Positions 1,563 to 56,301 of a stretch of 64,000 nt of DNA are shown here, in pieces. The notes beneath the pieces were generated by a model that saw only the letters and a program-made list of their open reading frames with translations, did no database searches and was not told the DNA's origin. Made by a program: the position numbers and the translations under genes. The stretch is from IMG/VR virus record IMGVR_UViG_3300024520_000058; one strand, given 5' to 3'. The stretch is from an uncultured virus (IMG/VR IMGVR_UViG_3300024520_000058) (taxonomy: Duplodnaviria; Heunggongvirae; Uroviricota; Caudoviricetes). Every line of letters starts with the position of its first letter. Position 1 is the stretch's first letter.

Positions 1563-1763
1563 TCACCTCTTCCTTACTGCACGTGTCAAATCCTTTACTG
1601 CTTCCACTAAGCCATCCAACGTACTATGGATCTGCGGAAAAACACCCACTGAATGAACTGCCACTCCCAAATCACAAAGCTCGATGTCAGATGCGCCTCC
1701 CCATAATACGCATTCCTCGTTTCTGCAAGTTCCATTTATCAGCGGACAAAACTCACGAACCAT
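1563..1763 (-). CDS. small Cys-rich hypothetical protein
   Basis: FCPLINGTCRNEECVLW..C motif, common in phage proteins. AAGGTGG SD. Confidence 0.65.
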   Translation of the reverse strand: MVREFCPLINGTCRNEECVLWGGASDIELCDLGVAVHSVGVFPQIHSTLDGLVEAVKDLTRAVRKR

Positions 1764-1846
1764 TCTAAATCACCACCTTTTACTTTCGCCAGCAGAAACC
1801 AGCCTTTTACCCAGGAAAACCCCCTTTTTGACCTGTTTCTACTGGT

Positions 1847-1875
1847 AGTTTATCACAAAATGATGGACCTGGCAA
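1847..1875 (-). promoter_or_regulatory. sigma70-type promoter
   Basis: TTGCCA-17 nt-TAAACT with TG at the extended -10 position, upstream of the 1763 ORF. Confidence 0.6.
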
Positions 1876-2218
1876 GGAAATAGTAACCTCTTAGGGCGGC
1901 GGAAGAGTGGTAGATTGTTTTTTCGCGCACCTCGCGGGGTCAGAACTTAACTGTGAGAGGTACCCCCCCGATCAGGGGGGGGTCGGCTTGTGTCAGATGA
2001 AAGGAAAAAGGGAGGTAAAAAAAAGACTCTAAGGATACCACGCACAGGATGAAGACGTGCGCGTCACATGGTTATCACGCAGGAACAACCACGTGACGTG
2101 GTATCACTAGAGCAGGAAGGTGTATGGTGGGATAGAATAAGTCATACCAACGGTTAAGGGCTGGTGTGGCACTTATGATACATGCCCCATAAGATATGTT
2201 ATGCAGACCAAATCCACG

Positions 2219-2788
2219 TCAAAATGCTTGCGATTGCTTGAGGTTATTCCATATCTCAGTCAACTGTTCTATACTCCAGCCGCGTGCACCCAACATAGTG
2301 AGAAATCGCTCTATTGCAGCGATTGGCGTCATGTTATCACTGCCAACATTGACATTGACGTTGACATTCTCTGTCTGATGTTTAGGCGTATATATGCCTT
2401 GTACCTCTAATCCAAGTCTTATTGCTCCAATTTTCTCATTCTTTGCCGCCTTGACTAATGCAGTATAGAATACTTGACTATCCTGCATAAATAACTCATG
2501 TAGAATGGATTGTTTACACGCTTTATATGCCCTTGACCTATGAGCATAATACACTGTTTGCACGTGTATTTTGAGTTTTTTTGCTATCTGCGCTATGGTA
2601 CGCGAAGATTCTGACATGAAGTCGTATATTTCCTCATGTAATATCAGGATTTGGTTTTTTGGTAGGTCTATCAGTTTAGTATGAGATTCTATAATATCAT
2701 CGGCGGCGGCTTTGTCCAGCTTGTTTTTGTCCAGTCTTTTGGCAAGTGTATTCTGTTTTGGCAGCTTGAAATCTTCATCTTGTGGCAT
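2219..2788 (-). CDS. putative terminase small subunit (phBC6A51-like HTH protein)
   Basis: HTH TIAQIAKKLKIHVQTVY, then the helical VFYTALVKAAKNEKIGAIRLGLEVQGIYTPK and a beta tail NVNVNV. This is the usual TerS layout. GGGAG SD. Confidence 0.6.
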   Translation of the reverse strand: MPQDEDFKLPKQNTLAKRLDKNKLDKAAADDIIESHTKLIDLPKNQILILHEEIYDFMSESSRTIAQIAKKLKIHVQTVYYAHRSRAYKACKQSILHELFMQDSQVFYTALVKAAKNEKIGAIRLGLEVQGIYTPKHQTENVNVNVNVGSDNMTPIAAIERFLTMLGARGWSIEQLTEIWNNLKQSQAF

Positions 2789-3147
2789 AATAATACTCCC
2801 GTAGGTTTAGGGTTACACCTTAATCATACCATGAATATTGACAAAAAGCGATCACAAATCGCACACATTGGTTTAGACTGTTGGTATCAGTGTGTTTGTG
2901 GCATGGCGGTGGTATGATTTGTCATGTCTGATTGGTGGTAAACACCACGCTTCGCAGTGGCTATGACTGAGTTACTGTCAATGTGATCACTTTTCGCAGT
3001 GGGGTGATCACTTTATGATCCCTTTTGGCTTCGTAGGATCGGTATTATGGCGGTGTTTATGGCATGCTTTGGCAAGTGATGGCGTAGGCATTCAGGCAGT
3101 GATGTCAACGGTTTAGCTCATGTGTGGCGGTGGTGGTTTTGGAGTCT

Positions 3148-3163
3148 TGGCATGACTCTAGCA
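3148..3163 (+). promoter_or_regulatory. sigma54-type (-24/-12) promoter
   Basis: TGGCATG-ACTC-TAGCA against consensus TGGCACG-N4-TTGCW, with exact GG-N10-GC spacing. Predicted +1 is near 3174, where the structured region begins. Confidence 0.55.
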
Positions 3164-3173
3164 ATATTGGACG

Positions 3174-4035
3174 GCGTCCGTCGGCTGATGGCAATCAGTC
3201 ATACAGGACACGAAAGACCTGCAATAGGTCAAGCGAGGTAACGACTCTACAAACAGCAAAGTTTAGGTAGCACACACGCATGGATCACCATGCGGATGGC
3301 ATTGGACACCATCGGAGCATCCTGTGGCTAGTCAGTAGAGCAATCGCCAAACGGTAATACCAGTGAACCGACCCGTAAACCTGCGGACGTGCGAAACTCG
3401 TACCACAGGTAGCCGTGTGAATAGCGGTGGGTAGGGATGGAGCATCATTTGAGCATTCGATGGTGTGCAATCCCACACGAAAAATCACTGATCATAGGTC
3501 TGCGAATAGACTTTAGATGGAAACATCACGACTTATCATCACATGAGTCATCCCATTTGGAGTTGTTGGCACGTTGTCGTTTTTCCCTGTTTTTAGAATA
3601 CGTTCCTCAGACGTTGTGAGACAGTGGAAACGCCTCAAAAAAAGCGTATAGCACGTGTCAATCAGTCAAGCACACTTGACATAGACGAGCAGACACCTCA
3701 GCGAATTAGGTCAAGGCAAACTTGACTGACAACGAAAAGTATTTTGTGGTACGCTTGCGCGGAAGCACAGTACACCTCTGATAGGCGTTCTGGCTGAGGG
3801 TAGTCGTGGAAACCTTGACACCTTGATATATGTTCCAACATTAAAACAGAATACACTTGCCGAATACAGTTAAGCATAAACTTGCCGCTTGACTGGTTTA
3901 ACCAAATCCCAGAAACCATTATATATCACACAGTCAACGAAGATATGTAGACATACCACGACAGCAATATAGGGAATAAGTGACGGAGACTTGAGTTTGT
4001 CACGTGTCAGAAAGGTTCTGGCAGTCCTGCGACTC
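3174..4035 (+). ncRNA. large (~860 nt) structured non-coding RNA, class unassigned
   Basis: No credible ORF. Dense hairpins: 3216-3230, 3277-3294, 3516-3527 (GAAA loop), 3665-3680, 3709-3727, 4005-4023. Long-range pairs: 3204-3209/4024-4029, 3321-3327/3403-3409, 3572-3578/3728-3734, 3696-3702/3793-3799, 3803-3809/3956-3962. Confidence 0.7.
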
Positions 4036-4062
4036 AAAAACACAAATCGGCGTTGGTTCTGT

Positions 4063-4071
4063 TGGTATAAT
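4063..4071 (+). promoter_or_regulatory. extended -10 promoter for the early operon
   Basis: TGG-TATAAT about 30 nt upstream of the AAAGGGGAA SD and ATG 4102. Confidence 0.55.
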
Positions 4072-4101
4072 TGACAGTAATCACCAGTAAAGGGGAACAT
4101 A

Positions 4102-4284
4102 ATGCCAAAGTACGTAAATCCGTGTCGTTTAGTAAAGGCAGAGTCACGGATCACTCGGCGTCGTTTGAAGGAACTGATCGACAGCCATGATCGTGATTTT
4201 GTGAAGTTGAGGATTTCTCAGATCGAGAGTCCTCTGGTACGTGCAGAGGCACGTAAGTATTTACGTGCCTGTTATGTGGCATAG
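4102..4284 (+). CDS. small basic early protein
   Basis: ORF with an AAAGGGG SD. First gene of the + arm. Confidence 0.65.
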   Translation: MPKYVNPCRLVKAESRITRRRLKELIDSHDRDFVKLRISQIESPLVRAEARKYLRACYVA

Positions 4285-4303
4285 CCACAGAGAGGATTGA
4301 ACA

Positions 4304-5041
4304 ATGGGAGCGTTAGCGCAGCTATTTGGAGAGGAAAGAGCGAAGGGTACGAAAGTCACTACTAAACCAGCGAAAGCCACAGCTAAGGCTAAGGTGAAAC
4401 CTGCGAAGTCCAGCGATGGACGCAAAAAGGTATGCAGTAAGTGTGGGAGCGAAGTATGGGCAATGCACACGAAGGAAGGGCTTTGCAAAGCATGTCAGGC
4501 AGTGACATCAGCAAAGGCTAAAACAGCGAAAGCTACACCAGCAAAGCGGTCAACGACGACCGGGAAGGAAACGACGATGGCACGTAGAAGTAAATTGAGA
4601 GCGTCAAAAGAGATCAAGGCGACCGACTGGCATGACAAAGAGCCTTCGTTTGCCCAGACCAGCAGGTTGAAAAACGAGACAGGTCGTTTGCTGGACGAGC
4701 CGAACCTCAAGACCTGGGGCTTGGAGATGACACGTTTGGAGGCAAGTGAGTTGATCAGCATGTGCGCTGATGGGAATCAAGCTGAGGTACGTGAGATTCT
4801 GATAAACGACTATGATGCTCCTTTGTGGAAGTCTAAGGCTAAGCCTGGGAAGTCCACGAAGAAGGCGAAAACGGCTTCCACACGCAAAGTGGAGACTAAA
4901 CCATCGAAGGCAGAACCGGCAGACCCGCCCGAAGAGGACTATGTTGCTATCATAGCGGCATTGAAAAAGAAAGCGGCTGGCCTGAAGGGAGCTAACACTC
5001 GTCTGATAAACGAGAAGAACGCCAGAGAGGAGGCTGCATAA
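4304..5041 (+). CDS. Lys/Ala-rich protein with Zn ribbon (possible DNA-binding protein)
   Basis: CSKC...CKAC motif flanked by KPAKATAKAK-type low-complexity tracts. GAGAGGA SD. Confidence 0.75.
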   Translation: MGALAQLFGEERAKGTKVTTKPAKATAKAKVKPAKSSDGRKKVCSKCGSEVWAMHTKEGLCKACQAVTSAKAKTAKATPAKRSTTTGKETTMARRSKLRASKEIKATDWHDKEPSFAQTSRLKNETGRLLDEPNLKTWGLEMTRLEASELISMCADGNQAEVREILINDYDAPLWKSKAKPGKSTKKAKTASTRKVETKPSKAEPADPPEEDYVAIIAALKKKAAGLKGANTRLINEKNAREEAA

Positions 5042-40994: not shown

Positions 40995-41558
40995 TCATCG
41001 TGGAAATCCCTCCTCAGCAATCCACAGGTCGCCAATTACTTCCTTGATAGTAACCAGTGGCTCCAGCTGCTCTTTCACACCTTCCCAGGCGAAGTCATGT
41101 CCGCAAAGGATCCCACCAGGAGCGATCTTGGGAGACCAGACCTGAACGTCGTGGCCAACCAGCCTGTGATCAGAGTCCACAATCACGGCATATACGCTGC
41201 CATCTGTAAAGAGCGTTGCAGCGTCATCGCAAAGCATCCTGAGATAACATTCTCCGGTAAGACCTGGCTCCCACCACAAGGGAAATCGGTTCCGCTCTTG
41301 CATATTCTCCATGAACTCCAGGAAGATGTCTACGGTCAAAACGTCGCTGTGCGAGGTATGCCGCAGGTCTGGCTGCCCCAGCCACGTGTCCACTGTGCAT
41401 ACGCTTTGCTCGTCGTGCATAGCGTGGTATAGACGGTCAGTAGTCCTGCCCCTCCATGCCCCCAGCTCCACGATTACTGCATCGTCCGGCGCGTCAACAA
41501 CCAGCTGGTAGAGATAATCAAGTTCCTCATCGCCCATCCAGCCCTGTATTTCATCCAT
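40995..41558 (-). CDS. SAM-dependent methyltransferase (Methyltransf_24-like)
   Basis: IQGWM..E, IVELGAWRGRTT, VDTW, VDSDH and PGGILCGHD motifs. Confidence 0.9.
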   Translation of the reverse strand: MDEIQGWMGDEELDYLYQLVVDAPDDAVIVELGAWRGRTTDRLYHAMHDEQSVCTVDTWLGQPDLRHTSHSDVLTVDIFLEFMENMQERNRFPLWWEPGLTGECYLRMLCDDAATLFTDGSVYAVIVDSDHRLVGHDVQVWSPKIAPGGILCGHDFAWEGVKEQLEPLVTIKEVIGDLWIAEEGFPR

Positions 41559-42411
41559 TTGCCTTTACCCTCATCTTTGTACTACAGTACTTGCATAGGG
41601 GAAGCTCATCTGACTCACCGCTGAGATGCTTCTCCTGATAGTAGCGACGCAGTTTATGTTCCAGGACCTGCTCCAAACTAATGGAGTTAAGGTTCCCGAA
41701 AGTTATGTCTCCATGTGCGTCTACACAACAGAGACAGACAGTGCCATCAAACATAACATCAACTTCATGTAATATTCTGAAGCAAGGTGGGGTCTCCATA
41801 GGGACGCCTTCTGCCTGCAAGGTCCTGTTGGTACGGAATCCATCGATGCTCCCTGCCCACTCCATGAAACGAGCAGTGCCGACACCCGCGAAACCCATGT
41901 CAGCCCACAGCTCCTTGAACCTCGCGTTGTGTTCAGGATACTTCTTCTCGTCTGCCAGGCTATAGATATTCACCTTGATCGGATTGTCTACCATGAAATT
42001 CCTTATACGCTCACTTACAGTATCAAAATCCAGCCCCATCATTGATTCGTAGGACTCTTTATCATAGCCATGAAAGCTTATGGTAAAGTCACAGTATATA
42101 TCCGCGTACTCTTTCAACCTTTCAGCTATCTTGGGTACCAACCCGGAGCCATTCGTGTAGATGGAAACTTTAGCTTCCTTCTCTCTCAAATAGTCCATCC
42201 ATTGAAACAGACGCGGAAATAATAACGGGTCTCCCAATCGGAAGAGCGTAAAAGCCCGACAGCCCAGCTTTACAGCCTGGTCAACGATACTGGTGAAGAG
42301 ACCATAGTCCATCATCCCGCTCCTGCTGATCTCGGAATGTGGACACATCCTACACCTGGCGTTACACAGCGTAGAGGACTCTATGTGAACGTATTGGAGT
42401 TCCTGGTCCAT
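41551..42411 (-). CDS. radical SAM protein with SPASM/twitch domain
   Basis: ESSTLCNARCRMCP, GDPLL, YTNG, and C-terminal PC..DGTVCLCC.D..GNL..CKYC. Confidence 0.92.
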   Translation of the reverse strand: MDQELQYVHIESSTLCNARCRMCPHSEISRSGMMDYGLFTSIVDQAVKLGCRAFTLFRLGDPLLFPRLFQWMDYLREKEAKVSIYTNGSGLVPKIAERLKEYADIYCDFTISFHGYDKESYESMMGLDFDTVSERIRNFMVDNPIKVNIYSLADEKKYPEHNARFKELWADMGFAGVGTARFMEWAGSIDGFRTNRTLQAEGVPMETPPCFRILHEVDVMFDGTVCLCCVDAHGDITFGNLNSISLEQVLEHKLRRYYQEKHLSGESDELPLCKYCSTKMRVKANG

Positions 42412-43399
42412 CCATCGTCTCCTGAAAAAATAGCGACACATCGCGAGGTATCCGGTCGCTGGACGGGACCTCTCGCGTATCCAGAACTGCAAATGCCTTT
42501 CGGTGGTCATTGAAGTAGGCGTTGTTTTTTAGACAAGACCCCCCTGTCCTCGCGTAGAATGGTATCCCTGCCATTTCACTGAACACGGAGGAATGGTATC
42601 TGTAGCTAACTACTCCCTGCAGCAAAGAATAAACTCCAAGCATCACGCGTGGACTGCCAGGATATGGCAAACACTTGTACCGCTTAAACAGCTCTGGAGC
42701 CAGGTCGCCCAGGGATGAATAGATTATCTCTCCCTTCGCTACTTCGTTTGCCAGATTGTCTATAAGATGCCTAACGTGCGGCAAGTGAAGTACATTGAAA
42801 TGGTTCAGCAAAGCTTTCGCTATGGCAACAGGTTCCTGGAAGTTAGCTATACCTCCTGCAGTAGCCAACCCGATTATAGGAAGGCTGTCTTCATACATTG
42901 GCATAATGGCCTGTGCTCCATCCATTTCTGGTATCATACGAAAGGCAAAGTCGTCAAACACCTGGGGCTCAAACCCCATCTTCCGAGCAATCGCTTGTGA
43001 CTCGCTGCTACGAACAGTGAATCGTTCGCATTTGCTGAACAACTCAGAGACACGATGATAGCATTCTCTTGGAACTGTTTCTAATCCAATACGTTCAACA
43101 GTCACAGTCACTCCCTGCTCAATAGCTCTGTCAGCAATAACACCCGCGCGGTCGCATATATGATCATCATAGAACAGTCCTCCTCCACCGATCACCAGTC
43201 TCTTGGCATCAGAGGCGAAGCCATTGGCAATAAGTTCCAGTTCCCCAATGGAATGCCGGTATGTTGGCTGCCGAACATACACCTGCACAACCTCATACTG
43301 CGGCAGGTATTGATCCAGGAGGCCCTCAAAGATGGCATCATCACCTAAGTTTCCTGTCCCATAGCATCCAAAAGCGTATAACAGACCTTTGCTACCCAT
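42362..43399 (-). CDS. polysaccharide pyruvyl transferase family protein
   Basis: GCYGTGNLGDDAI, IGGGGLF, TVRS..S and SYRYHS motifs. Confidence 0.88.
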   Translation of the reverse strand: MGSKGLLYAFGCYGTGNLGDDAIFEGLLDQYLPQYEVVQVYVRQPTYRHSIGELELIANGFASDAKRLVIGGGGLFYDDHICDRAGVIADRAIEQGVTVTVERIGLETVPRECYHRVSELFSKCERFTVRSSESQAIARKMGFEPQVFDDFAFRMIPEMDGAQAIMPMYEDSLPIIGLATAGGIANFQEPVAIAKALLNHFNVLHLPHVRHLIDNLANEVAKGEIIYSSLGDLAPELFKRYKCLPYPGSPRVMLGVYSLLQGVVSYRYHSSVFSEMAGIPFYARTGGSCLKNNAYFNDHRKAFAVLDTREVPSSDRIPRDVSLFFQETMDGPGTPIRSHRVLYAV

Positions 43400-43400
43400 T

Positions 43401-44150
43401 CTATACTCCTATCGTTACCGAATGCCCATGCTGCAGATAGCCATATTCCTGCATGATTTCACCAGCTTCACCCCATATTGTATCCAGGAAGCCTTGGCCT
43501 ACCAGGGGGTCTCGCTGCCACTTGAGACAATGAGCATTATATCGCTCAGCGCCAGAGGCAAAGACAACCTGCTGAAACCCGAATAGCTCTCTTACGTCGG
43601 GCTTGACCATATCACGGCTTCTTATAACTTTCGGTATTTTCTCCACAGGTACTACGTTAAGAAACTCCAGAATACCTTCCAAAGTCTCAATAGGTGAAAG
43701 GCATAGGCGCTCATACTGCACAATATGAGGGCCGTATTTCAGAAATGCGCTGAAGTAGTCTGTCCACATCCTGGCACTATTAGCGGTCAGTTCTCGGTTG
43801 GCGACAAGTTCCTCAACTGTCTCCACCTTACCCTCGACCTCCCGTTTATACATGTCCGACAGTATGCAATCCCGGGGGTCTCTCAGAAGCAGGATATAGG
43901 TGCCTTTGTCACCCAGAATCTTCCATCTGTCCAGGTGGGCCACAAACAGAAATACATCGGCAAGACCCACTCCGTGGTTAAGAGGCTCCACCCCCTGCAC
44001 AACCACGCGGCCGGTAGCCTTACTGATTAGCGCGGACAGATAGTTCCTGCCACTCCTGGGATATGAGGACATGACGTTGTGCTTGTTCACCACTGCCCAT
44101 TCAGTAAACCGGCGCTCTGCCTGCGTCCTTTCATACTCTGCTTTGTTCAT
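43401..44150 (-). CDS. PAPS-dependent sulfotransferase
   Basis: 5'-PSB loop SYPRSGRNYL, 3'-PB motif LLRDPRDCILS, VQYERL and KWQ. Confidence 0.88.
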   Translation of the reverse strand: MNKAEYERTQAERRFTEWAVVNKHNVMSSYPRSGRNYLSALISKATGRVVVQGVEPLNHGVGLADVFLFVAHLDRWKILGDKGTYILLLRDPRDCILSDMYKREVEGKVETVEELVANRELTANSARMWTDYFSAFLKYGPHIVQYERLCLSPIETLEGILEFLNVVPVEKIPKVIRSRDMVKPDVRELFGFQQVVFASGAERYNAHCLKWQRDPLVGQGFLDTIWGEAGEIMQEYGYLQHGHSVTIGV

Positions 44151-44751
44151 CGTTCCTCTCAAACATTGGCTGAAGATGGCTCTTCTGAATAACAGCTTCT
44201 ATACTCCATTCAGAAGGAGCGTCCTTCCCGCCCCGAATCTCGATCTCACCAGCTCTGTGTACTGGCATGTGGTCACAGCACTCGTTTATGTACCTGATGG
44301 AGCCGCCCGGCAACGTCCCTCGAAGCAGATGATAGAGAGATACCGTATCCGGCGGCTCCGCTTCGAAAGGCAGGAAGTAATGGAAATGACTGCCGTTGTA
44401 GATGGAAGGAAGCGTTAGCTGACGCTCGTAGTAGTCTCGATGCGGCACAAACAGGATCAGATGTCCACCATACTTCAGTATACGCCACCAATTCTGCAAT
44501 CCAGTATGCACGTCCTGGATATGCTCCAAGCAATGTGAGCTGTACACCCAATCATAGTTATTATCCTGAACGCCCTCCATGTGCGTTGCATCTCCGATAA
44601 TCGTAACACCTGGGAGGTCCTGCTTGTCAAAGCCATCTGCTTCAGGCAATATCTTCGCATTATGACATCCTATGTCTATGCCTTTGCCCTGGCAATACTT
44701 CTCAAAGAAGTAGGAGCGCTTACGTCTGGTAACCGCATTGCCTGTACCCAT
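44131..44751 (-). CDS. class I SAM-dependent methyltransferase
   Basis: GKGIDIGC, GDA, YDWVYSSHCLEH and WWRILKYGGHLILFVP motifs. Confidence 0.9.
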   Translation of the reverse strand: MGTGNAVTRRKRSYFFEKYCQGKGIDIGCHNAKILPEADGFDKQDLPGVTIIGDATHMEGVQDNNYDWVYSSHCLEHIQDVHTGLQNWWRILKYGGHLILFVPHRDYYERQLTLPSIYNGSHFHYFLPFEAEPPDTVSLYHLLRGTLPGGSIRYINECCDHMPVHRAGEIEIRGGKDAPSEWSIEAVIQKSHLQPMFERNDEQSRV

Positions 44752-45971
44752 TAGGAGCCCTCCACACGTGTGCGAAACTTCCGCAAGTACCTGTTCATCG
44801 TATTCCACATCCCCATGATCTCTGACCGGGGCAGCTCCGGAGTCTGGTATACAAAACCAGTCTCGTTGTTGCCGTGGATGTAGAAGTAATGGTCGAAGTC
44901 TTCATCCAGGATCAACACCTGTTCGTAGACAGGAGTACCTGGATAGGGTATCAGCGGATAGGCTCTTACGATATCCGGCTGTGCTTCCTCCAGGAAGCTT
45001 ATAGTCTCATAGAAGGTTTCCCAGGTCTCCCCCGGGTACCCGATCACCAACCAGGCCAGAACATCGATGCCCACTTCCTGAAGTTCCTTAATAGCACGAA
45101 GGTTCTGTTCCCTGCTTGTTCTTTTATTCATGGACGTCAACACTCTGTCCGACCCGCTCTCTATCCCGATACACGCGGTCTTACATCCGGTGGCAGCCAG
45201 GAGCTCAGGGAGGCCTTCTTTATAGTCAGCCCGGACGTTGCAGCTATACTGCAGATCCAGGTCCCTGTCCTTCAGGCACTGGAGCGAGAAAAGGTTCGAT
45301 GCAAAGAGATCATCTTTGAAACGGAAACTCACATCTCCATACCTCTTTCGAATGTCAAGGATCTCTCTTACCACAGCACCTGTACTCCGCCGCCTCATAA
45401 CGTGCCCACCAGGTAGCTTGCTACAGAACCCACATTGATATGGGCATCCCCTGCTGGTGAAGATCTGAAACGAAGGCTTGCCCTGATACCTGCGTGTGTA
45501 GCTTGATACGTCTACAAGGGAATAGTCTGGAGCGGGTATGAGGTTTATTGACATCTTATGGCCATGGATAATAGCTTCCCCCTGGCCCAGAGAGACCAGC
45601 TCCAACAGAGCCGACTCTCCTTCGCCAACTATTACATAGTCAAAGTCCATGGAAGTACTCATAGGCATTGCACTGGCATGGGGTCCTCCAGCTACTGTCT
45701 TCACATCCGGATGCAGCTCTTCCACCAGCTCCTTAATTCGAACCGTCCGGTTGTAGCTGGCTGTGTATGTAGAAAACCCATACCAGTCAGCTTCCGGAAA
45801 CTCCCAATCATCTTCTGGAATCCCGGAAAGATCCAGGATCTTCACTTCATACCCGGCCTGCTTCAGAACAGTTCCCAGGTATAATAGACCCATTGGGGGA
45901 TCTAACCTGTCATCCTGAAGCTCCGGCACCGGCGTCTTCACCAGACATATACTGGTCATTAGTTCGATCAT
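44751..45971 (-). CDS. B12-binding radical SAM protein (class B methyltransferase-like)
   Basis: PPMGLLYL, AGGPHAS and VGEGE (cobalamin-binding domain), TSRGCPYQCGFC, GIESGS, IGYPGET and PYPGT. Confidence 0.92.
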   Translation of the reverse strand: MIELMTSICLVKTPVPELQDDRLDPPMGLLYLGTVLKQAGYEVKILDLSGIPEDDWEFPEADWYGFSTYTASYNRTVRIKELVEELHPDVKTVAGGPHASAMPMSTSMDFDYVIVGEGESALLELVSLGQGEAIIHGHKMSINLIPAPDYSLVDVSSYTRRYQGKPSFQIFTSRGCPYQCGFCSKLPGGHVMRRRSTGAVVREILDIRKRYGDVSFRFKDDLFASNLFSLQCLKDRDLDLQYSCNVRADYKEGLPELLAATGCKTACIGIESGSDRVLTSMNKRTSREQNLRAIKELQEVGIDVLAWLVIGYPGETWETFYETISFLEEAQPDIVRAYPLIPYPGTPVYEQVLILDEDFDHYFYIHGNNETGFVYQTPELPRSEIMGMWNTMNRYLRKFRTRVEGS

Positions 45972-46963
45972 GAGCATACCCCCGGGTTACCCACCAGCTT
46001 ACGAGCCTCGTCGTAGGAAATATTAATGGGTTGCTCATCCCACCGATAGTCCATCCAGGGATTACCCTTCATAGCTTTGGGATGCTCTCCCAGAAACGGC
46101 GCTCTGTGATGCGGCTCATGGTTCAGGAAATAATCATGTGTTTCCAGTTTGAACTTCAGCACGTCACCCTGGCCAAATTCGTGACAGACTTTTATCTCAT
46201 TTTCGTTCTTCCATCTGCGGTCTATCATCTCGTATTGCCAGAGCAGCTTCTCCAGGATCCTCTGGATGTCACGGACCAAAGCATAGTGAAATGCAAATCC
46301 TTCGGTCTCAGCGTCAACGTGCTTACTGAGATACTTCCTGCCATCCCATTCCAGATCGTGTTCACGGCTATACCAACGCAGTGCTTTGTCATTATACCCA
46401 TCGTTCACTGCCCATTGCACCTCGAAACATGCTGGAAAGTAGAAAGCCCGCGCATGTGGCTTCCTGAATACCCGCTGATGTGCGGTGAAGAAGATGGTCT
46501 TTTCGTGGTACACGTCATGGTAGAAGACCCGCTCCGGAACGAACATATTGTCGTACTCTCCTTCATCAACCCAGCGGCGAATATTCTTACATAATTTCTT
46601 GGGATAGACTATATCTCCATCCACTACCCAGATATATTCTCCTACCTTCGCAGTATCCACAATCATCTGGTATGGTATGGATTCCGCTCCGTAGATGAAC
46701 CCGGCTGGACAGTGCCGTATCTTCTTATCCGGATCCGGGAAGTTACGAATGATCTCCGTGGTTCCATCCATGGAGAGTCCTGCCGGGGAAACTCGCTCAG
46801 GGAGAATCACTCTCCGCATCGACTCCAAACAATATTCGAATATGACTATCTCATCGGCATAGTCATAGATACTCTTCAGACTTGCCGCCATGAAATCCGC
46901 TTCGTTGAAAACCTTATAGTAAACTACTAACTTATTGCCCTTGCCCTTGTTTCTAAACCGCAT
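45968..46963 (-). CDS. glycosyltransferase, GT-A/GT2-like
   Basis: VFNEADFM..SLKSI..ADEIV, SMDGTTEII and the DxD motif WVVDGD. Confidence 0.85.
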   Translation of the reverse strand: MRFRNKGKGNKLVVYYKVFNEADFMAASLKSIYDYADEIVIFEYCLESMRRVILPERVSPAGLSMDGTTEIIRNFPDPDKKIRHCPAGFIYGAESIPYQMIVDTAKVGEYIWVVDGDIVYPKKLCKNIRRWVDEGEYDNMFVPERVFYHDVYHEKTIFFTAHQRVFRKPHARAFYFPACFEVQWAVNDGYNDKALRWYSREHDLEWDGRKYLSKHVDAETEGFAFHYALVRDIQRILEKLLWQYEMIDRRWKNENEIKVCHEFGQGDVLKFKLETHDYFLNHEPHHRAPFLGEHPKAMKGNPWMDYRWDEQPINISYDEARKLVGNPGVCS

Positions 46964-48767
46964 TGGTATTCTCCTTCGTGGAGCTGGAAGCTTTCAAAAG
47001 CTGATCTATTTGCCTCATTACCTGATCAGCTTTGATGCTCCACATACACATAGGCCACTTCTTGTCGTTGCCTCGACAACAGTGGAGCTGCCAGTCGTTA
47101 CACGCTACACACTTCGCTTTGCCCAGAATGTGGTGAACGGTTGGGTAATGTGCAATCCGCAGATCCGGATGCACTGACCCAAATAGACCCAGAGCCAGGT
47201 TGTTGGTAACACCTGCTATGTGTAATCCACCACTGTCAGGACAGAGCAGAATATTTGCAGCTCCTATCATCCCAACGTATTCCTGGAAGGAAAGTTTCCC
47301 TGTTAGGTTCACCACACTGGCAGGATACTTGAACTCCTGGTCAGATACTGCCACAACGCTATAGCCACGTTTCCTGGCTATCCCAACGAACTCTTTCTGA
47401 CGAGCCATAGGCCACATCCTGGAAGCGCCTTTGGAGTCTGACTGCATCACGATTACTCTCCCATTTCCTGGAACACCATTCTGCTCCAGGATGGCATGGG
47501 CAACCTCCGTCCAGGATTCTGGTATCTGGAACTGCCAATCAGTGCTATAATCTACCTGGTCCAGACCAATCGCCCTGGCAAACAGCAGAGCCCTGGGAAC
47601 CTCGCTTGTCTCCGTTCCAAAATCGATGGCGTTTATGGTATTGTAAATCGTGTGATAGTTCGTATAATCGTGACCACCAGGCGGAAGCGGCAGTCCAGCT
47701 GTACCGTGTTCATAATCCATCGTCAACACGTGGTCAACCACTCCTGACAATCTGACCAATTCCCCAACACCCGGCGAGGTCATATACACAATCACCATGT
47801 TGGGATACATCTTCTTCAGAGTTGCCAGCGCCGGTAGGCTGCTTAGCACATCACCAACTCCGCGGAAGCGTATGAACAATGCCCAAAGTTCCTCACTTTC
47901 CTCTTTCTTCCCAAAGGCTACCGGTATTGTCTTCCTGGGAAGAAGAAGGTGTTTATCCAGCTCCCTCAAAGCACTTCGAAGTGAGATGCCCAGGATGCCG
48001 CGACGTAACGTAAAGTTATCGCTCTCCAGGACGGTCGCTGTTGGATAGTTCTCATACAGGTCACTGAACAGAGAGAAACACATCACAGTGGTCTCAGTGC
48101 CCAGAGCTGCGGAGATATGAGATAATCCTGTATCAGGCCCAAACACAACGTCCATCATGGCTAATCCCTGCATCACATCTCGTAGGGGCCTGTCCAGAAA
48201 GAAATGCGCCCCTGGTGGTATGGAAGCCGCTGTAGCTCCAGAAATCCCCTTCGCAAATACAAACACATCGAACTCTTTCCGCTTTATGAGAGTTCGTATG
48301 AAGCCTATAGTATACGCCCAATCCTTTGCCCTTTGTTTTGACCTCAGTATCACACCAACGCATGGTCTGTTAAACCATTTCCGCATCTTACGAACTTCAT
48401 TCCACTCCGGAGCTGTGAGATAAAGCTTCGGGTAATCCATGACTCTAGGGAACCCGGCGGCCTCCCACATACGAAGGTTCTTCCCGGGAAGAAATCTTTC
48501 TCCACCCTCGTCTTTTTCGGTAGATGCTATGGCTTCGTTGATGTTAATAATCTTTGTATCTTCCGGTATCTGCTCCAGGCTGGTCATCCCCTGTACTATG
48601 GGGTGCCCTTCGAAGAGCTCCGGATGATTTGATAAGATGTAGCTCTTATCTTTCACCGCTGACATCCTGGCTATTGGCTCTAACAATACGTTATCTCCTA
48701 ACCATAGGAGATTAGGATACGCCAAAGCCGGAATGCGTATAGTTGATCCTATCAAACTTTCAGACAC
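46953..48767 (-). CDS. tandem double GT9 (heptosyltransferase-like) glycosyltransferase
   Basis: Two GT9 modules: LGDNVL...GPDTGLSHISAALG and RGVGDVL...CPDSGGLHIAG..GLFG..P..R. GTG start at 48767 with GGAGG SD. Confidence 0.88.
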   Translation of the reverse strand: MSESLIGSTIRIPALAYPNLLWLGDNVLLEPIARMSAVKDKSYILSNHPELFEGHPIVQGMTSLEQIPEDTKIININEAIASTEKDEGGERFLPGKNLRMWEAAGFPRVMDYPKLYLTAPEWNEVRKMRKWFNRPCVGVILRSKQRAKDWAYTIGFIRTLIKRKEFDVFVFAKGISGATAASIPPGAHFFLDRPLRDVMQGLAMMDVVFGPDTGLSHISAALGTETTVMCFSLFSDLYENYPTATVLESDNFTLRRGILGISLRSALRELDKHLLLPRKTIPVAFGKKEESEELWALFIRFRGVGDVLSSLPALATLKKMYPNMVIVYMTSPGVGELVRLSGVVDHVLTMDYEHGTAGLPLPPGGHDYTNYHTIYNTINAIDFGTETSEVPRALLFARAIGLDQVDYSTDWQFQIPESWTEVAHAILEQNGVPGNGRVIVMQSDSKGASRMWPMARQKEFVGIARKRGYSVVAVSDQEFKYPASVVNLTGKLSFQEYVGMIGAANILLCPDSGGLHIAGVTNNLALGLFGSVHPDLRIAHYPTVHHILGKAKCVACNDWQLHCCRGNDKKWPMCMWSIKADQVMRQIDQLLKASSSTKENTNAV

Positions 48768-48790
48768 AGCATTTGCCTCCTGTGTATAGA

Positions 48791-48816
48791 AGTGAGGGGA
48801 GACAGCTCCCCTCACT
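48791..48816 (-). terminator. hairpin after the capsid/decoration genes
   Basis: AGTGAGGGGAG-CTGT-CTCCCCTCACT, a perfect 11-bp stem. Confidence 0.65.
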
Positions 48817-48834
48817 GGTTTTGTATGCCCTGTG

Positions 48835-49326
48835 TTAGACCGGGCAGTTGATGAAAAAGCTGCCAATGGCAATAGCGGTACCTACGTCCACTATCCTGGA
48901 TGTTCCCACTGGTACCCTCTGGCCACTTGCCCAGAGAATTATGGTCCCATCGCCAGTTGAAAGGACACAAACTCCGTCCCTGGTGACAGAGCCATCACTG
49001 GTTATGGCAATCTTATTCAGACCCTTGGAGTGTGCAAAGCCAAACTCGCCATCGGCAAGAGTAGCCTGCAACTGACCCACAGGTTTATTTACCAACACAT
49101 CCGTGTCGTCCAGGTCAGCTGTAGCTTCCCACGGTTCCTTGGTAGGATCCGCTAAAGCTACGAACAGACCTGCAGTTCCGGCCACTGAGCCTGCGCCCTC
49201 GTAATACTTGATGTAGACAAACTCGTTTCCCATCTCGTCGAAATACTTCTGGCCGGGACGGAATCGTCTCGCATCAGTATACACGCCGTTGACTATGGCT
49301 CCAGTTACATACGGTGCAGCTCCCAT
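48835..49326 (-). CDS. capsid decoration/cement protein
   Basis: Directly after the MCP. GNEFVYIK and DGEFGFAHSKG pattern. AAGGAGG SD. Confidence 0.65.
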   Translation of the reverse strand: MGAAPYVTGAIVNGVYTDARRFRPGQKYFDEMGNEFVYIKYYEGAGSVAGTAGLFVALADPTKEPWEATADLDDTDVLVNKPVGQLQATLADGEFGFAHSKGLNKIAITSDGSVTRDGVCVLSTGDGTIILWASGQRVPVGTSRIVDVGTAIAIGSFFINCPV

Positions 49327-54465: not shown

Positions 54466-56301
54466 CTAAAACACAAGCTCTTTCTGCTTGGTTGGTTGAG
54501 TTCTGATGAGCTGCTCGATGAACTTCTGACGAAGTACCGGCGCCGGTAAACCATTTATGTCTCTGCCCACTTTCCAGAGACTGTCTGCCTCACGCTTTTC
54601 TTCTACCTCATCCGGACGTCCCTGGCCACTCTCCAATAAGTCCATCACCTGGTGGCCAATCCCCAGAGCAAACAGCCTGTCGTCCGGATGACCCTGGAGC
54701 TTCCCGTTCTTGTCCTGGACAAATCCCAGCGCTTCATTTATGCAACCCAGATCAGGTACCGATAACAGTAAATCACTTACAAGTGTCCTATGTGCCTCTA
54801 CGATTGCCCGTCGCATTCCACCGATCACATACGTTCGGGTACCCACGTGGGTGTCCCAACCTGGCGCTGACTGAAACCGCAAACCCAATGCCAGGTCATT
54901 GGTTGATGGTCGATGGAAGATTCTACCTATGGGGTACTTCTCAATCCCCAGCTCTTTGTATCCCCGGATGAGGTACGTTTGTGCCTGTGCTCCATAGTTA
55001 CGTATTTCAATCGCCATCCACGCAGGTTTGTAGTTGGGCTCCCCTTCATGGTAGAAGTGCCCAAGAAGCCATAGCTCCCGCGCGAGCTGCTCTTCAGAGA
55101 GGTGTCCGTGGATACTTGCCACTATCCGACGAGTATCTTTCCGGAACACGTATGCAGCAGTATAGTCTCCACCTGGTTTTCCCTCTGCTACATCCACTGC
55201 TATCACATACCCAGGACTTTGCTGGAGATGCTTCTTGGGAACAGGTAGCTCCCATATCTTCAGCATGTAATCTCCCTCTGGCAAATCAGGGAAATATCCC
55301 AGCTCATCAGTACTGTCCACAAACTTGACCATGGACCCAAGAGGTTCCTGGGGGTCGTGGATAAGAACACCTAACTTGGGGGTGGATACCTCCAGATGGT
55401 CCATGAGATGGGTACGCAGCTTTAGAAGTATGTCTCGGTCGAAGCAGCTTCTTCCGGTGAAAACCATGAAGAGCCCGGTCTCCCGGATGCGTATCTCCAT
55501 AGCTCCCATACCTGCCATCATGTCCAGCGCCTGCTGCACGTTCATATACTTTGCGTTTTCTCTCATGTTCACGTAATAGATCCACAGCTCTGGCCTGGAG
55601 CTCTGGTCCCTCTGCCAAGGTTCCACCAGGTCTTTGTGCATCCAGAGTACGTCTCTTGCAAGTAGTGGGCTATCAGCATCCACAACTGGTGTCAAACAGA
55701 TCCACATATAGCCTCCAGACCTGGTGAATCTCATTTTGATTTCGTTGTAGATGGAGCGAGGATGTGGCTCATCCATGAACACGAAGTTCTTCTTTGAACC
55801 CTTGTAGGCGTTGACACCCTGGGTGACCCACTTGCAGTTCCACCAGGAGGGATATCTGTCATCGATGCCTTTGAACATGGCGCGATGCATGATGCCTTCC
55901 CGTATGTCATAGTTTTTCACGTAGGGTCCCATTACGCGGTCGAAGATAGGACGAATATTATCACGCTGTACGTCCTGCGAATAACAGGACATCCAGCCTT
56001 CAATCCCCGTTGTAGGTATGCGAAGGTCCATGTAGGGATGAATTGTCTTGCCAGTAAGATTGCCGTCTTCGTCTTCTTCAGCAACGGTATGCCATCCGGC
56101 TCGCACCATTCCGCAGTAGCTCTTGCCAGATCCGTTGCCCCCAGCGAAGATTATCTCATGGTGGTCAATATCCTCAAAGAATGGAACTTGACCACCCTCA
56201 TTTGGCGTGAAGGTGTCAAGAATGGTAGACTCTTCCACACTTTCGAAGATCGCCGCCAGTTCGCGCTGTTCTTCCTCTGTGGTAAACAGATTCGCTTCCA
56301 T
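54466..56301 (-). CDS. terL: terminase large subunit
   Basis: Walker A AGGNGSGKS, Walker B FVFMDEP, coupling motif LTP, nuclease motifs IAVDVAEG..GDY and HPDDRLFA. Confidence 0.93.
   Translation of the reverse strand: MEANLFTTEEEQRELAAIFESVEESTILDTFTPNEGGQVPFFEDIDHHEIIFAGGNGSGKSYCGMVRAGWHTVAEEDEDGNLTGKTIHPYMDLRIPTTGIEGWMSCYSQDVQRDNIRPIFDRVMGPYVKNYDIREGIMHRAMFKGIDDRYPSWWNCKWVTQGVNAYKGSKKNFVFMDEPHPRSIYNEIKMRFTRSGGYMWICLTPVVDADSPLLARDVLWMHKDLVEPWQRDQSSRPELWIYYVNMRENAKYMNVQQALDMMAGMGAMEIRIRETGLFMVFTGRSCFDRDILLKLRTHLMDHLEVSTPKLGVLIHDPQEPLGSMVKFVDSTDELGYFPDLPEGDYMLKIWELPVPKKHLQQSPGYVIAVDVAEGKPGGDYTAAYVFRKDTRRIVASIHGHLSEEQLARELWLLGHFYHEGEPNYKPAWMAIEIRNYGAQAQTYLIRGYKELGIEKYPIGRIFHRPSTNDLALGLRFQSAPGWDTHVGTRTYVIGGMRRAIVEAHRTLVSDLLLSVPDLGCINEALGFVQDKNGKLQGHPDDRLFALGIGHQVMDLLESGQGRPDEVEEKREADSLWKVGRDINGLPAPVLRQKFIEQLIRTQPTKQKELVF

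Follow-up and report, generated by a model that had tools for sequence, protein, structure and literature searches.

The locus and its flanking genes

The DNA analysed here (the window, 64,000 nt) comes from an uncultured tailed phage of the sea, podovirus-like, and covers the greater part of a 72.8-kb contig; the stretch is present in five seawater DNA runs. The window encodes a P22-like portal, an SU10-type adaptor, an SLT-domain protein, DnaB, a Pol III beta clamp and TerL (54466-56301), the last being far from a TerS-like gene. Consensus sigma-70-type promoters and SD sites are found elsewhere in the window, indicating that the host reads such signals.

Since the TerS-like gene runs leftward from 2788 and a 60-aa gene runs rightward from 4102, the gene-free gap that separates the leftward TerS-like gene from the rightward early genes extends from 2789 to 4101 (1313 nt). 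Crude mapping of the genes leaves no longer gap than this one in the window (1081-1313 nt). The preliminary description of this locus had singled out 3174-4035, the right two-thirds of the gap, as one large ornate RNA and as the sole long ORF-free stretch. The gap is indeed the longest but it is not alone, a second one of 455 nt being located at 1764-2218. The GC content of the gap region is 0.43-0.52, not markedly AT-rich. The features of the gap and its borders are as follows.

2219-2788, minus strand: gene of a TerS-like HTH protein (189 aa), transcribed away from the gap
2823-2831, minus strand: TGGTATGAT, word resembling an extended -10 promoter, with the TerS-like ATG 34 nt downstream
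2848-2862, unstranded: palindrome GCGAT-CACAA-ATCGC; its minus strand resembles a terminator, with a hairpin and then a run of T
2853-2887, plus strand: the more upstream of two copies of the word pair CACAAATCG and CTGTTGGTAT (starts at 2853 and 2878)
2910-2918, plus strand: TGGTATGAT, third extended -10 word, facing into the gap
2921-3173, plus strand: G/T-rich block with the strongest strand-specific fold (z -3.68, 0/60 shuffles as good, versus -0.64 on the minus strand)
2975-3172, unstranded: cluster of nine SNPs in seawater metagenome contigs
2983-3011, plus strand: 11-bp hairpin (8 Watson-Crick and 3 G-U pairs) followed by TTTATGAT, terminator- or attenuator-like
3140-3320, unstranded: array of six short perfect palindromes (3142-58, 3170-82, 3185-98, 3216-30, 3277-94 and 3295-3313)
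3665-3726, unstranded: perfect twin palindromes GTCAAG-N4-CTTGAC and GTCAAG-N5-CTTGAC
3843-3896, plus strand: two tandem copies of a word of the TerS-like gene, inverted relative to its codons 9-19 (2731-2759)
4041-4071, plus strand: downstream copy of the paired words CACAAATCG and CTGTTGGTAT (starts at 4041 and 4059), ending in TGGTATAAT
4063-4071, plus strand: TGGTATAAT, extended -10 word, 30 nt before the first early ATG
4102-4284, plus strand: first early gene (60 aa, SD AAGGGG), right neighbour of the gap

The TerS-like gene displays an SD sequence (GGGAG) 9 nt before its ATG. Its product scores just above the cut-off of PF13022 in Pfam (29.9 bits, cut-off 27.9) and matches the terminase small subunit in PHROG with E values of 1.5e-4 and 4.2e-3. 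The structural model is of low confidence (mean pLDDT 58); the best fold match (E 0.03, TM 0.58 on the target) is to 2ao9, a phage protein regarded as a small-terminase-like nonamer.

Coding capacity of the gap

A conserved coding frame, whose presence the preliminary description had named beforehand as a test of its proposal, is absent: analysis of periodicity and searches of Pfam, PHROG and a protein collection were all negative. After training on 27 long ORFs, a 3-periodic Markov score gives values at or below about zero for each of the six frames of 2790-4080, and positive ones for the flanking genes. Per codon, ORFs of the gap score like 422 wrong-frame ORFs (about -0.2), with two exceptions lying above the 95th percentile of this null (-0.053): a 33-aa ORF on the plus strand (3015-3116, -0.043) and a 94-aa ORF on the minus strand (3870-4154, -0.020), for which a homologue search found none. 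Six-frame read-through of the gap gave no PHROG family and a single chance-level Pfam row (E 0.21). None of nine gap ORFs is found in a collection of 15 billion proteins, in which the 60-aa first early gene is represented on three contigs. A 73-aa ORF, which with the 94-aa ORF is one of the two longest of the gap, was also considered as a gene and rejected, its single match, to a repeat protein (E 1.3e-4), being spurious.

Comparison with known RNA families

The preliminary description could match the stretch to no known family by eye, and the Rfam search that it called for agrees with this. At gathering score, no match was obtained over the whole 64-kb window. When E values of up to 10 were admitted for 1600-4300, the yield was only two rows at chance level, TLS-PK6 (18.3 of 44 bits) and ST7-OT3_4 (13.7 of 80 bits), none of them inside 3174-4021. 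The 4227 models used presumably include GOLLD, ROOL, OLE, HEARO, raiA, group I and II introns and the phi29 pRNA. A tRNA/tmRNA search found none.

Hairpins, long-range pairs and folding energy

All 12 pairings that had been listed for 3174-4035 are found where they were placed, ten of them being exact Watson-Crick helices. The pairings 3709-15/3721-27 and 4005-12/4016-23 are present as well, but each includes one non-Watson-Crick position. The tiling of the stretch with hairpins also stands: compared with 300 dinucleotide shuffles of 3174-4035, perfect short hairpins are about twice as common. Those with a stem of 4 number 35, versus 20.4 +/- 5.6 in shuffles (reached by 2/300), those with a stem of 5 number 11 versus 5.2 (12/300) and those with a stem of 6 number 4 versus 1.3 (11/300).

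The long-range architecture is another matter. Against the same shuffles, exact complementary 7-mer pairs amount to 31 versus 23.5 +/- 5.9 (reached by 30/300) and 6-mer pairs to 114 versus 92.8. The five crossing 7-bp pairs from which multiple pseudoknots had been deduced are at chance level, and none of the five occurs in the centroid fold of 2921-4101; consequently, no pseudoknot follows from them. The 6-bp helix CAGGAC 3204-3209/GTCCTG 4024-4029, supposed to close the whole domain, does not exceed chance among 6-mer pairs either. Among tetraloops on perfect stems, one of four is GNRA and none of four is UNCG.

Folding better than shuffled sequence, another test named beforehand, is observed for the plus strand of 3174-4035 (z -3.77, 0/100 shuffles as good), which also surpasses ten equal-length strand-segments taken as controls from coding parts of the window (z +0.32 to -2.12). 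The minus strand reaches z -1.68 (7/100 shuffles as good). This excess is unevenly distributed along the gap. It amounts to -3.86 on the plus strand and -0.56 on the minus strand in 2789-3173, and to -4.48 and -2.19 in 3174-3830. Within the latter region, 3321-3660 gives -1.71 on plus and +0.42 on minus, and 3661-3830 gives -1.84 and -2.43. The segment 3140-3320, which carries six different perfect palindromes, is symmetric (-3.26 on plus, -3.83 on minus), and 3831-4101 is weakly structured (-1.59 on plus, -0.43 on minus). No 150-nt window within 3174-4035 falls below z -3, and the most extreme local structure of the neighbourhood belongs to the first early gene (4151-4350, z down to -5.8). 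Helices in the centroid fold of 2921-4101 mostly display mean pair probabilities of 0.7-0.99, the ensemble being well defined.

The borders 3174 and 4035 proposed for the RNA are therefore not natural ones: the gap itself extends from 2789 to 4101, the strongest strand-specific fold lies to the left of 3174 and the structure of 3831-4101 is weak.

Promoter-like words, palindromes and repeats

The extended -10 word TGGTATRAT occurs three times in the 64 kb (shuffle mean 1.12) and all three copies are within the gap. None of the three is accompanied by a good -35 element and an automated promoter scan lists none of them. No other convincing plus-strand promoter was found in the gap before 4063. 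The paired words CACAAATCG and CTGTTGGTAT have just two occurrences in the window, 2853/2878 and 4041/4059.

Other words are strongly enriched in the gap. CTTGAC/GTCAAG is found seven times, including the two palindromes (about 0.8 expected), TGGCGGTG three times (0.05 expected) and TGGAAAC three times (0.08 expected). TGGCGGTG, TGGCATG, GGTTTAG and TGGAAAC are each present three times in a single orientation; the first three of these are the direct repeats of the block 2921-3173, and direct repeats span 2890-3160. A search for tandem repeats or iterons returned only two trivial rows. As for DnaA boxes (TTWTNCACA), three are present in the window (4.25 expected) and none in the gap. The hairpin 2983-3011 has a mean pair probability of 0.97 and a T-rich tail.

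The word common to the gap and to the TerS-like gene consists of 22-nt arms, 2738-2759 and 3843-3864, that are 95% complementary (21/22); blastn of this word against the whole window gives E 0.002. The second copy, 24 nt at 3873-3896, is weaker (75%, 18/24). A perfect TATAAT lies nearby on the minus strand (3928-3923).

Several other roles of these sequences were considered and rejected. The CTTGAC words are not -35 boxes, as none has a -10 element at 16-19 nt. A GATC cluster (5 in 300 nt), which could have been a Dam-regulated pac site, is equalled at several other places in the window. Nor does the gap store a silent version of the variable TerS-like middle, since it resembles neither allele beyond the 22-nt word. 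Finally, three results speak against an invertible segment or MITE with the 22-nt inverted repeat as its ends: no strand-changing joint was seen in four runs, Pfam/PHROG scans of the submitted ORFs gave no recombinase family, and the left arm is embedded in conserved codons of the TerS-like gene.

Relatives and strain variation

No cultured phage appears to be close to this one: among 50,697 phage records, neither blastn of 2800-4300 nor tblastn of the portal and the TerS-like protein found a match. IMG/VR scans with the TerS-like protein, a 245-aa early protein, the portal and a TerS alignment gave no relative, and two exact gap words gave one unrelated chance match in total. A scan of the same database with a portal alignment identified one distant record, with a portal 38% identical, in which only about 258 nt separate the TerS-like gene from divergent small genes; the extra kilobase is thus not conserved across the wider group. 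Proteins related to the portal at 66-72% identity are nevertheless encoded on contigs as long as 65.9 kb, and a relative of the TerS-like protein on one of 24.6 kb. A prokaryote-genome scan for relatives found none.

The only alignable sequences of the stretch come from near-identical strains. A JGI metagenome scan yielded one contig of the same phage, 2793 nt long and reaching 116 nt into the gap, which is 100% identical in most 50-nt bins except for the swapped middle of the TerS-like gene. Swapping of this middle (about 2380-2700) is observed among near-identical strains. The stretch 3174-4035 is almost invariant, with one SNP at 3366 (contigs, four of five seawater DNA runs). When placed on the centroid fold, the nine SNPs of 2975-3172 break pairs in four cases, change them to G-U in two and fall on unpaired positions in three, none being compensatory.

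A putative divergent control region with a structured leader

Long gene-free and hairpin-rich stretches recur at the head of phage early operons, and the question at issue is in what proportions they represent large functional RNAs and control DNA with a leader. The gap described here offers a clean example from a marine phage lineage without cultured relative. We lean, tentatively and at a little short of an even chance, towards a composite divergent control region (2789-4101) including a long structured untranslated leader, and not a discrete ornate RNA. For the time being, the stretch looks like the control region of a new phage lineage, ordinary except for its unusual length.

The specific architecture of one RNA proposed by the preliminary description finds no support, with its pairs at chance level, its fold spilling past the left border and fading before the right one, and palindromes equally marked on two strands. 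These properties, together with the repeated words and promoter words, are explained no less well by a composite region than by a single discrete RNA. A control region is further favoured by the location of all three TGGTATRAT words in the gap, two of them 30-34 nt before the flanking ATGs, by the duplication of CACAAATCG/CTGTTGGTAT, by the enrichment in DNA words, by the fold excess of the plus strand and by the lack of coding signal.

From what is observed, namely where the words, hairpins and folds lie, their statistics and the absence of coding signal, we infer promoter activity, transcription, read-through and protein binding in the gap. The word at 2823-2831 would drive the TerS-like gene leftward and the word at 4063-4071 the early operon rightward. 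The word at 2910-2918 is predicted to fire rightward into the gap, host RNA polymerase starting near 2925 and producing an untranslated, hairpin-rich plus-strand RNA. The hairpin at 2983-3011 could stop this transcript early, giving an RNA of about 95 nt. Without such a stop, the RNA would continue for about 1.1 kb, across the flagged stretch and on to the early genes, and form a long structured leader. Most likely, the repeated DNA words would bind phage or host proteins and in this way set the timing of the two operons.

Certain points count against the control region. If termination at 2983-3011 were efficient, transcripts from 2910-2918 would not reach the flagged stretch. Moreover, the excess of plus-strand over minus-strand folding fits a stand-alone RNA too, the promoter words lack a good -35 element and the relative with the 38% identical portal has only about 258 nt at this place. 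The three promoter words, the terminator-like hairpin and the 22-nt word common to the TerS-like gene are all signals that can be tested at the bench.

Relation to known systems

At the left end of T7 and in lambda-type early leaders, a control region and an untranslated leader head the early operon. The gap resembles them in having several hundred gene-free bases before the first early gene, host-type promoter signals and leader hairpins. Its two rightward extended -10 words are 1.15 kb apart, with no coding frame between them and the early gene. On the other hand, it is longer (1.3 kb) and is located between divergent operons. No rrn-type boxA, RNase III site or nut site was identified in it. 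Matches to rrn-type boxA with up to three mismatches number 15 in the window (16.1 expected) and none lies in 2789-4101; two stems of 5-6 bp with GCAAU or GCAAA loops in the gap are, in our view, only loosely boxB-like.

Phages are known to possess long control regions that are non-coding and rich in repeats, one example being the 1662-bp non-coding region of T5 (10.1101/866236). Like the gap, it exceeds 1 kb, has stops in all frames, contains different palindromes and repeats, and adjoins the first-expressed genes. The gap differs by its lack of DnaA boxes and by showing no similarity to the 50,697 phage records. By analogy, the gap would work most like podovirus or lambdoid early control regions, and it looks most like the T5 region.

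In the Vibrio phage ICP1, an abundant transcript of about 800 nt is reported from an ORF-less space of about 1 kb (PMC7567579). Both are marine phages with an ORF-less gap of similar size. However, the ICP1 transcript was measured and that of the present gap is predicted; there is no sequence similarity, and the ICP1 gap lies by the lysis cluster and ours at the head of the early operon. With GOLLD and ROOL (10.1101/2024.12.08.627333; PMC7567579), the stretch shares a length of 600-900 nt, a phage setting and many helices, but not an Rfam match, tRNA neighbours or a family of homologues. For Pseudomonas phages, short 5'UTR-derived RNAs arising through premature termination are described (PMC10914365), and the pairing of a promoter word with a hairpin at 2910-3011 would fit such RNAs.

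Alternative explanations

Possible, if on the unlikely side, is that the gap functions only as a cis element at the DNA level, as a pac region for the TerS-like protein, a replication origin or a region of DNA entry or pausing. Its palindromes and repeats would then be candidate protein-binding or bending sites, the RNA having no role of its own. The enrichment of words in both orientations, the palindromes with equal z on both strands and the direct repeats at 2890-3160 point in this direction, as do the 22-bp word that recurs at the 5' end of the TerS-like gene and, beside a variable non-coding patch, the swapping between strains of the DNA-binding TerS-like middle. The injection-stop region of T5 (10.1101/866236) would provide a precedent for a palindrome-rich non-coding kilobase. 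Nevertheless, DNA palindromes leave the strand-specific fold excess in 2789-3173 and 3321-3660 unexplained, and the gap contains neither DnaA boxes (none of the three matches in the window) nor tandem iterons, nor is it AT-rich to a marked degree (GC 0.43-0.52).

The gap is a real feature; its interpretation as RNA is unproven. We give only a small chance to a new class of large non-coding RNA, structured and discrete, encoded on the plus strand, probably longer than first proposed (about 2925 to 3830-4035), and acting early in trans as a decoy, a scaffold or an RNA-only assembly. Its plus-strand z of -3.77 to -4.48 lies beyond the ten control strand-segments, the ensemble is well defined (most centroid helices at 0.7-0.99), a promoter word faces into the gap, coding signal is lacking, the absence of an Rfam match is what a new class would give, and the ICP1 transcript of about 800 nt (PMC7567579) is a precedent. 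Yet the proposed pseudoknot pairs are at chance level, the 3' end has no terminator and is directly followed by a promoter, the right third is weakly structured (z -1.59), and the tetraloops (1/4 GNRA, no UNCG) are not in its favour. Strain variation also argues against it: in the best-folding block four of nine SNPs break predicted pairs and none compensates, and the region is absent from the relative with the 38% identical portal. Slimmer still is the chance of a fuller version, in which the plus strand from about 2925 to about 3830-4035 would be a stand-alone RNA of about 0.9-1.1 kb and of an uncatalogued class, with an extended -10 promoter of its own that fires as infection begins, its copy of the 22-nt word competing for a factor that acts on the TerS-like mRNA. 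If true, a stand-alone RNA here would be a new large phage RNA, and the residual chance of this is modest.

Hidden small genes are, in our estimation, even less probable. They would comprise a 33-aa hydrophobic peptide (3015-3116, plus strand), a 29-aa peptide (3152-3241, plus strand) and/or, at about 2925-3020, a small RNA some 95 nt long. The score of 3015-3116 (-0.043), just above the 95th percentile of the null, is within the range of those small genes that were accepted, weak SD-like words precede both ATGs, and four of the six SNPs in the two ORFs fall at third codon positions, three being synonymous (binomial p about 0.1, with frames chosen after the fact). Small RNA genes usually consist of just such a promoter word followed by a terminator-like hairpin, and the premature-termination 5'UTR RNAs of Pseudomonas phages (PMC10914365) offer a parallel. 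However, no ORF is found in the protein collection or matches a family, the 29-aa ORF has a null-like score (-0.153), and these genes would account for the flagged stretch at its left edge only, leaving 3242-4035 unexplained.

A minus-strand RNA acting in trans as antisense to the TerS-like mRNA, with tandem seeds (reverse complement of 3843-3896) matching codons 9-19, is very improbable: complementarity at 21/22 and 18/24 positions is far above chance within 2.7 kb, a perfect TATAAT is present on the minus strand (3928-3923), the minus-strand hairpin 2862-2848 suggests that leftward transcripts would end before the TerS-like promoter, and P1, P7 and N15 are known to produce trans-acting RNAs complementary to leaders (cited in PMC7567579), but the TATAAT has neither a -35 element at a workable distance nor a TG extension in register, no terminator follows the seeds, the minus strand is barely structured at 3831-4101 (z -0.43), and the repeat is equally explicable as a DNA site or a recombination scar.

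Exchange within the TerS-like gene

The TerS-like gene (2219-2788, minus strand), which lies to the left of the gene-free gap 2789-4101 and codes for a 189-aa HTH protein, has its middle part (window 2380-2700), predicted HTH included, exchanged in L001, a 2793-nt metagenome contig of the same phage. The replacement cassette is 40-70% identical to the window, and the rest of the contig is 100% identical. Two alleles of the gene occur side by side in the seawater runs; the joints lie at 2392/2599 and 2635/2708. To judge from the sequences, the exchange looks like the swap of a DNA-recognition module.

Contig matches and ends in the gap 2789-4101

One contig of X4, a seawater DNA run whose contigs were compared with the window, matches it at 3368-3427 only (60 nt) and diverges beyond these positions; a diverged relative may have kept this segment as a conserved core. 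Position 2904, just before the variable patch (a cluster of 9 SNPs at 2975-3172), is the exact end of two independent assemblies, L001 and an X4 contig. These ends are more likely to come from a strain bubble that broke the assembly than from a genome end.

A second gap, 1764-2218

Another gap without genes, 1764-2218, also folds better than its shuffles, with z (RNA folding energy against shuffled sequence, negative for a better fold) of -2.56 on the plus strand and -3.76 on the minus strand. It contains:

About 2112-2019, minus strand: long hairpin followed by T8, likely the terminator of the TerS-like gene
1961-1985: C8/G9 hairpin, of different length from run to run

Three segments (1937-1990, 2041-2077 and 2175-2215) match other metagenome contigs, where their flanks differ from the window. 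Since the matches are short and the flanks unlike, short elements of this gap seem to be common to other genomes in the same samples.

First early gene and enzyme block

In 150-nt windows, local folding in this neighbourhood is strongest at 4101-4350, within and just past the first early gene, where z falls as low as -5.8 (minus strand) and -2.9 (plus strand). The 60-aa protein encoded there (4102-4284) has no family match and carries an arginine-rich stretch, RITRRRLKE; an RNA-binding role for it is only a guess.

Flanked by capsid genes and the adaptor gene, 40995-48872 forms a block of sugar- and cofactor-type enzymes:

Two radical SAM proteins, one of them B12-binding
Sulfotransferase
Pyruvyl transferase
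Family 9 glycosyltransferase
Methyltransferases
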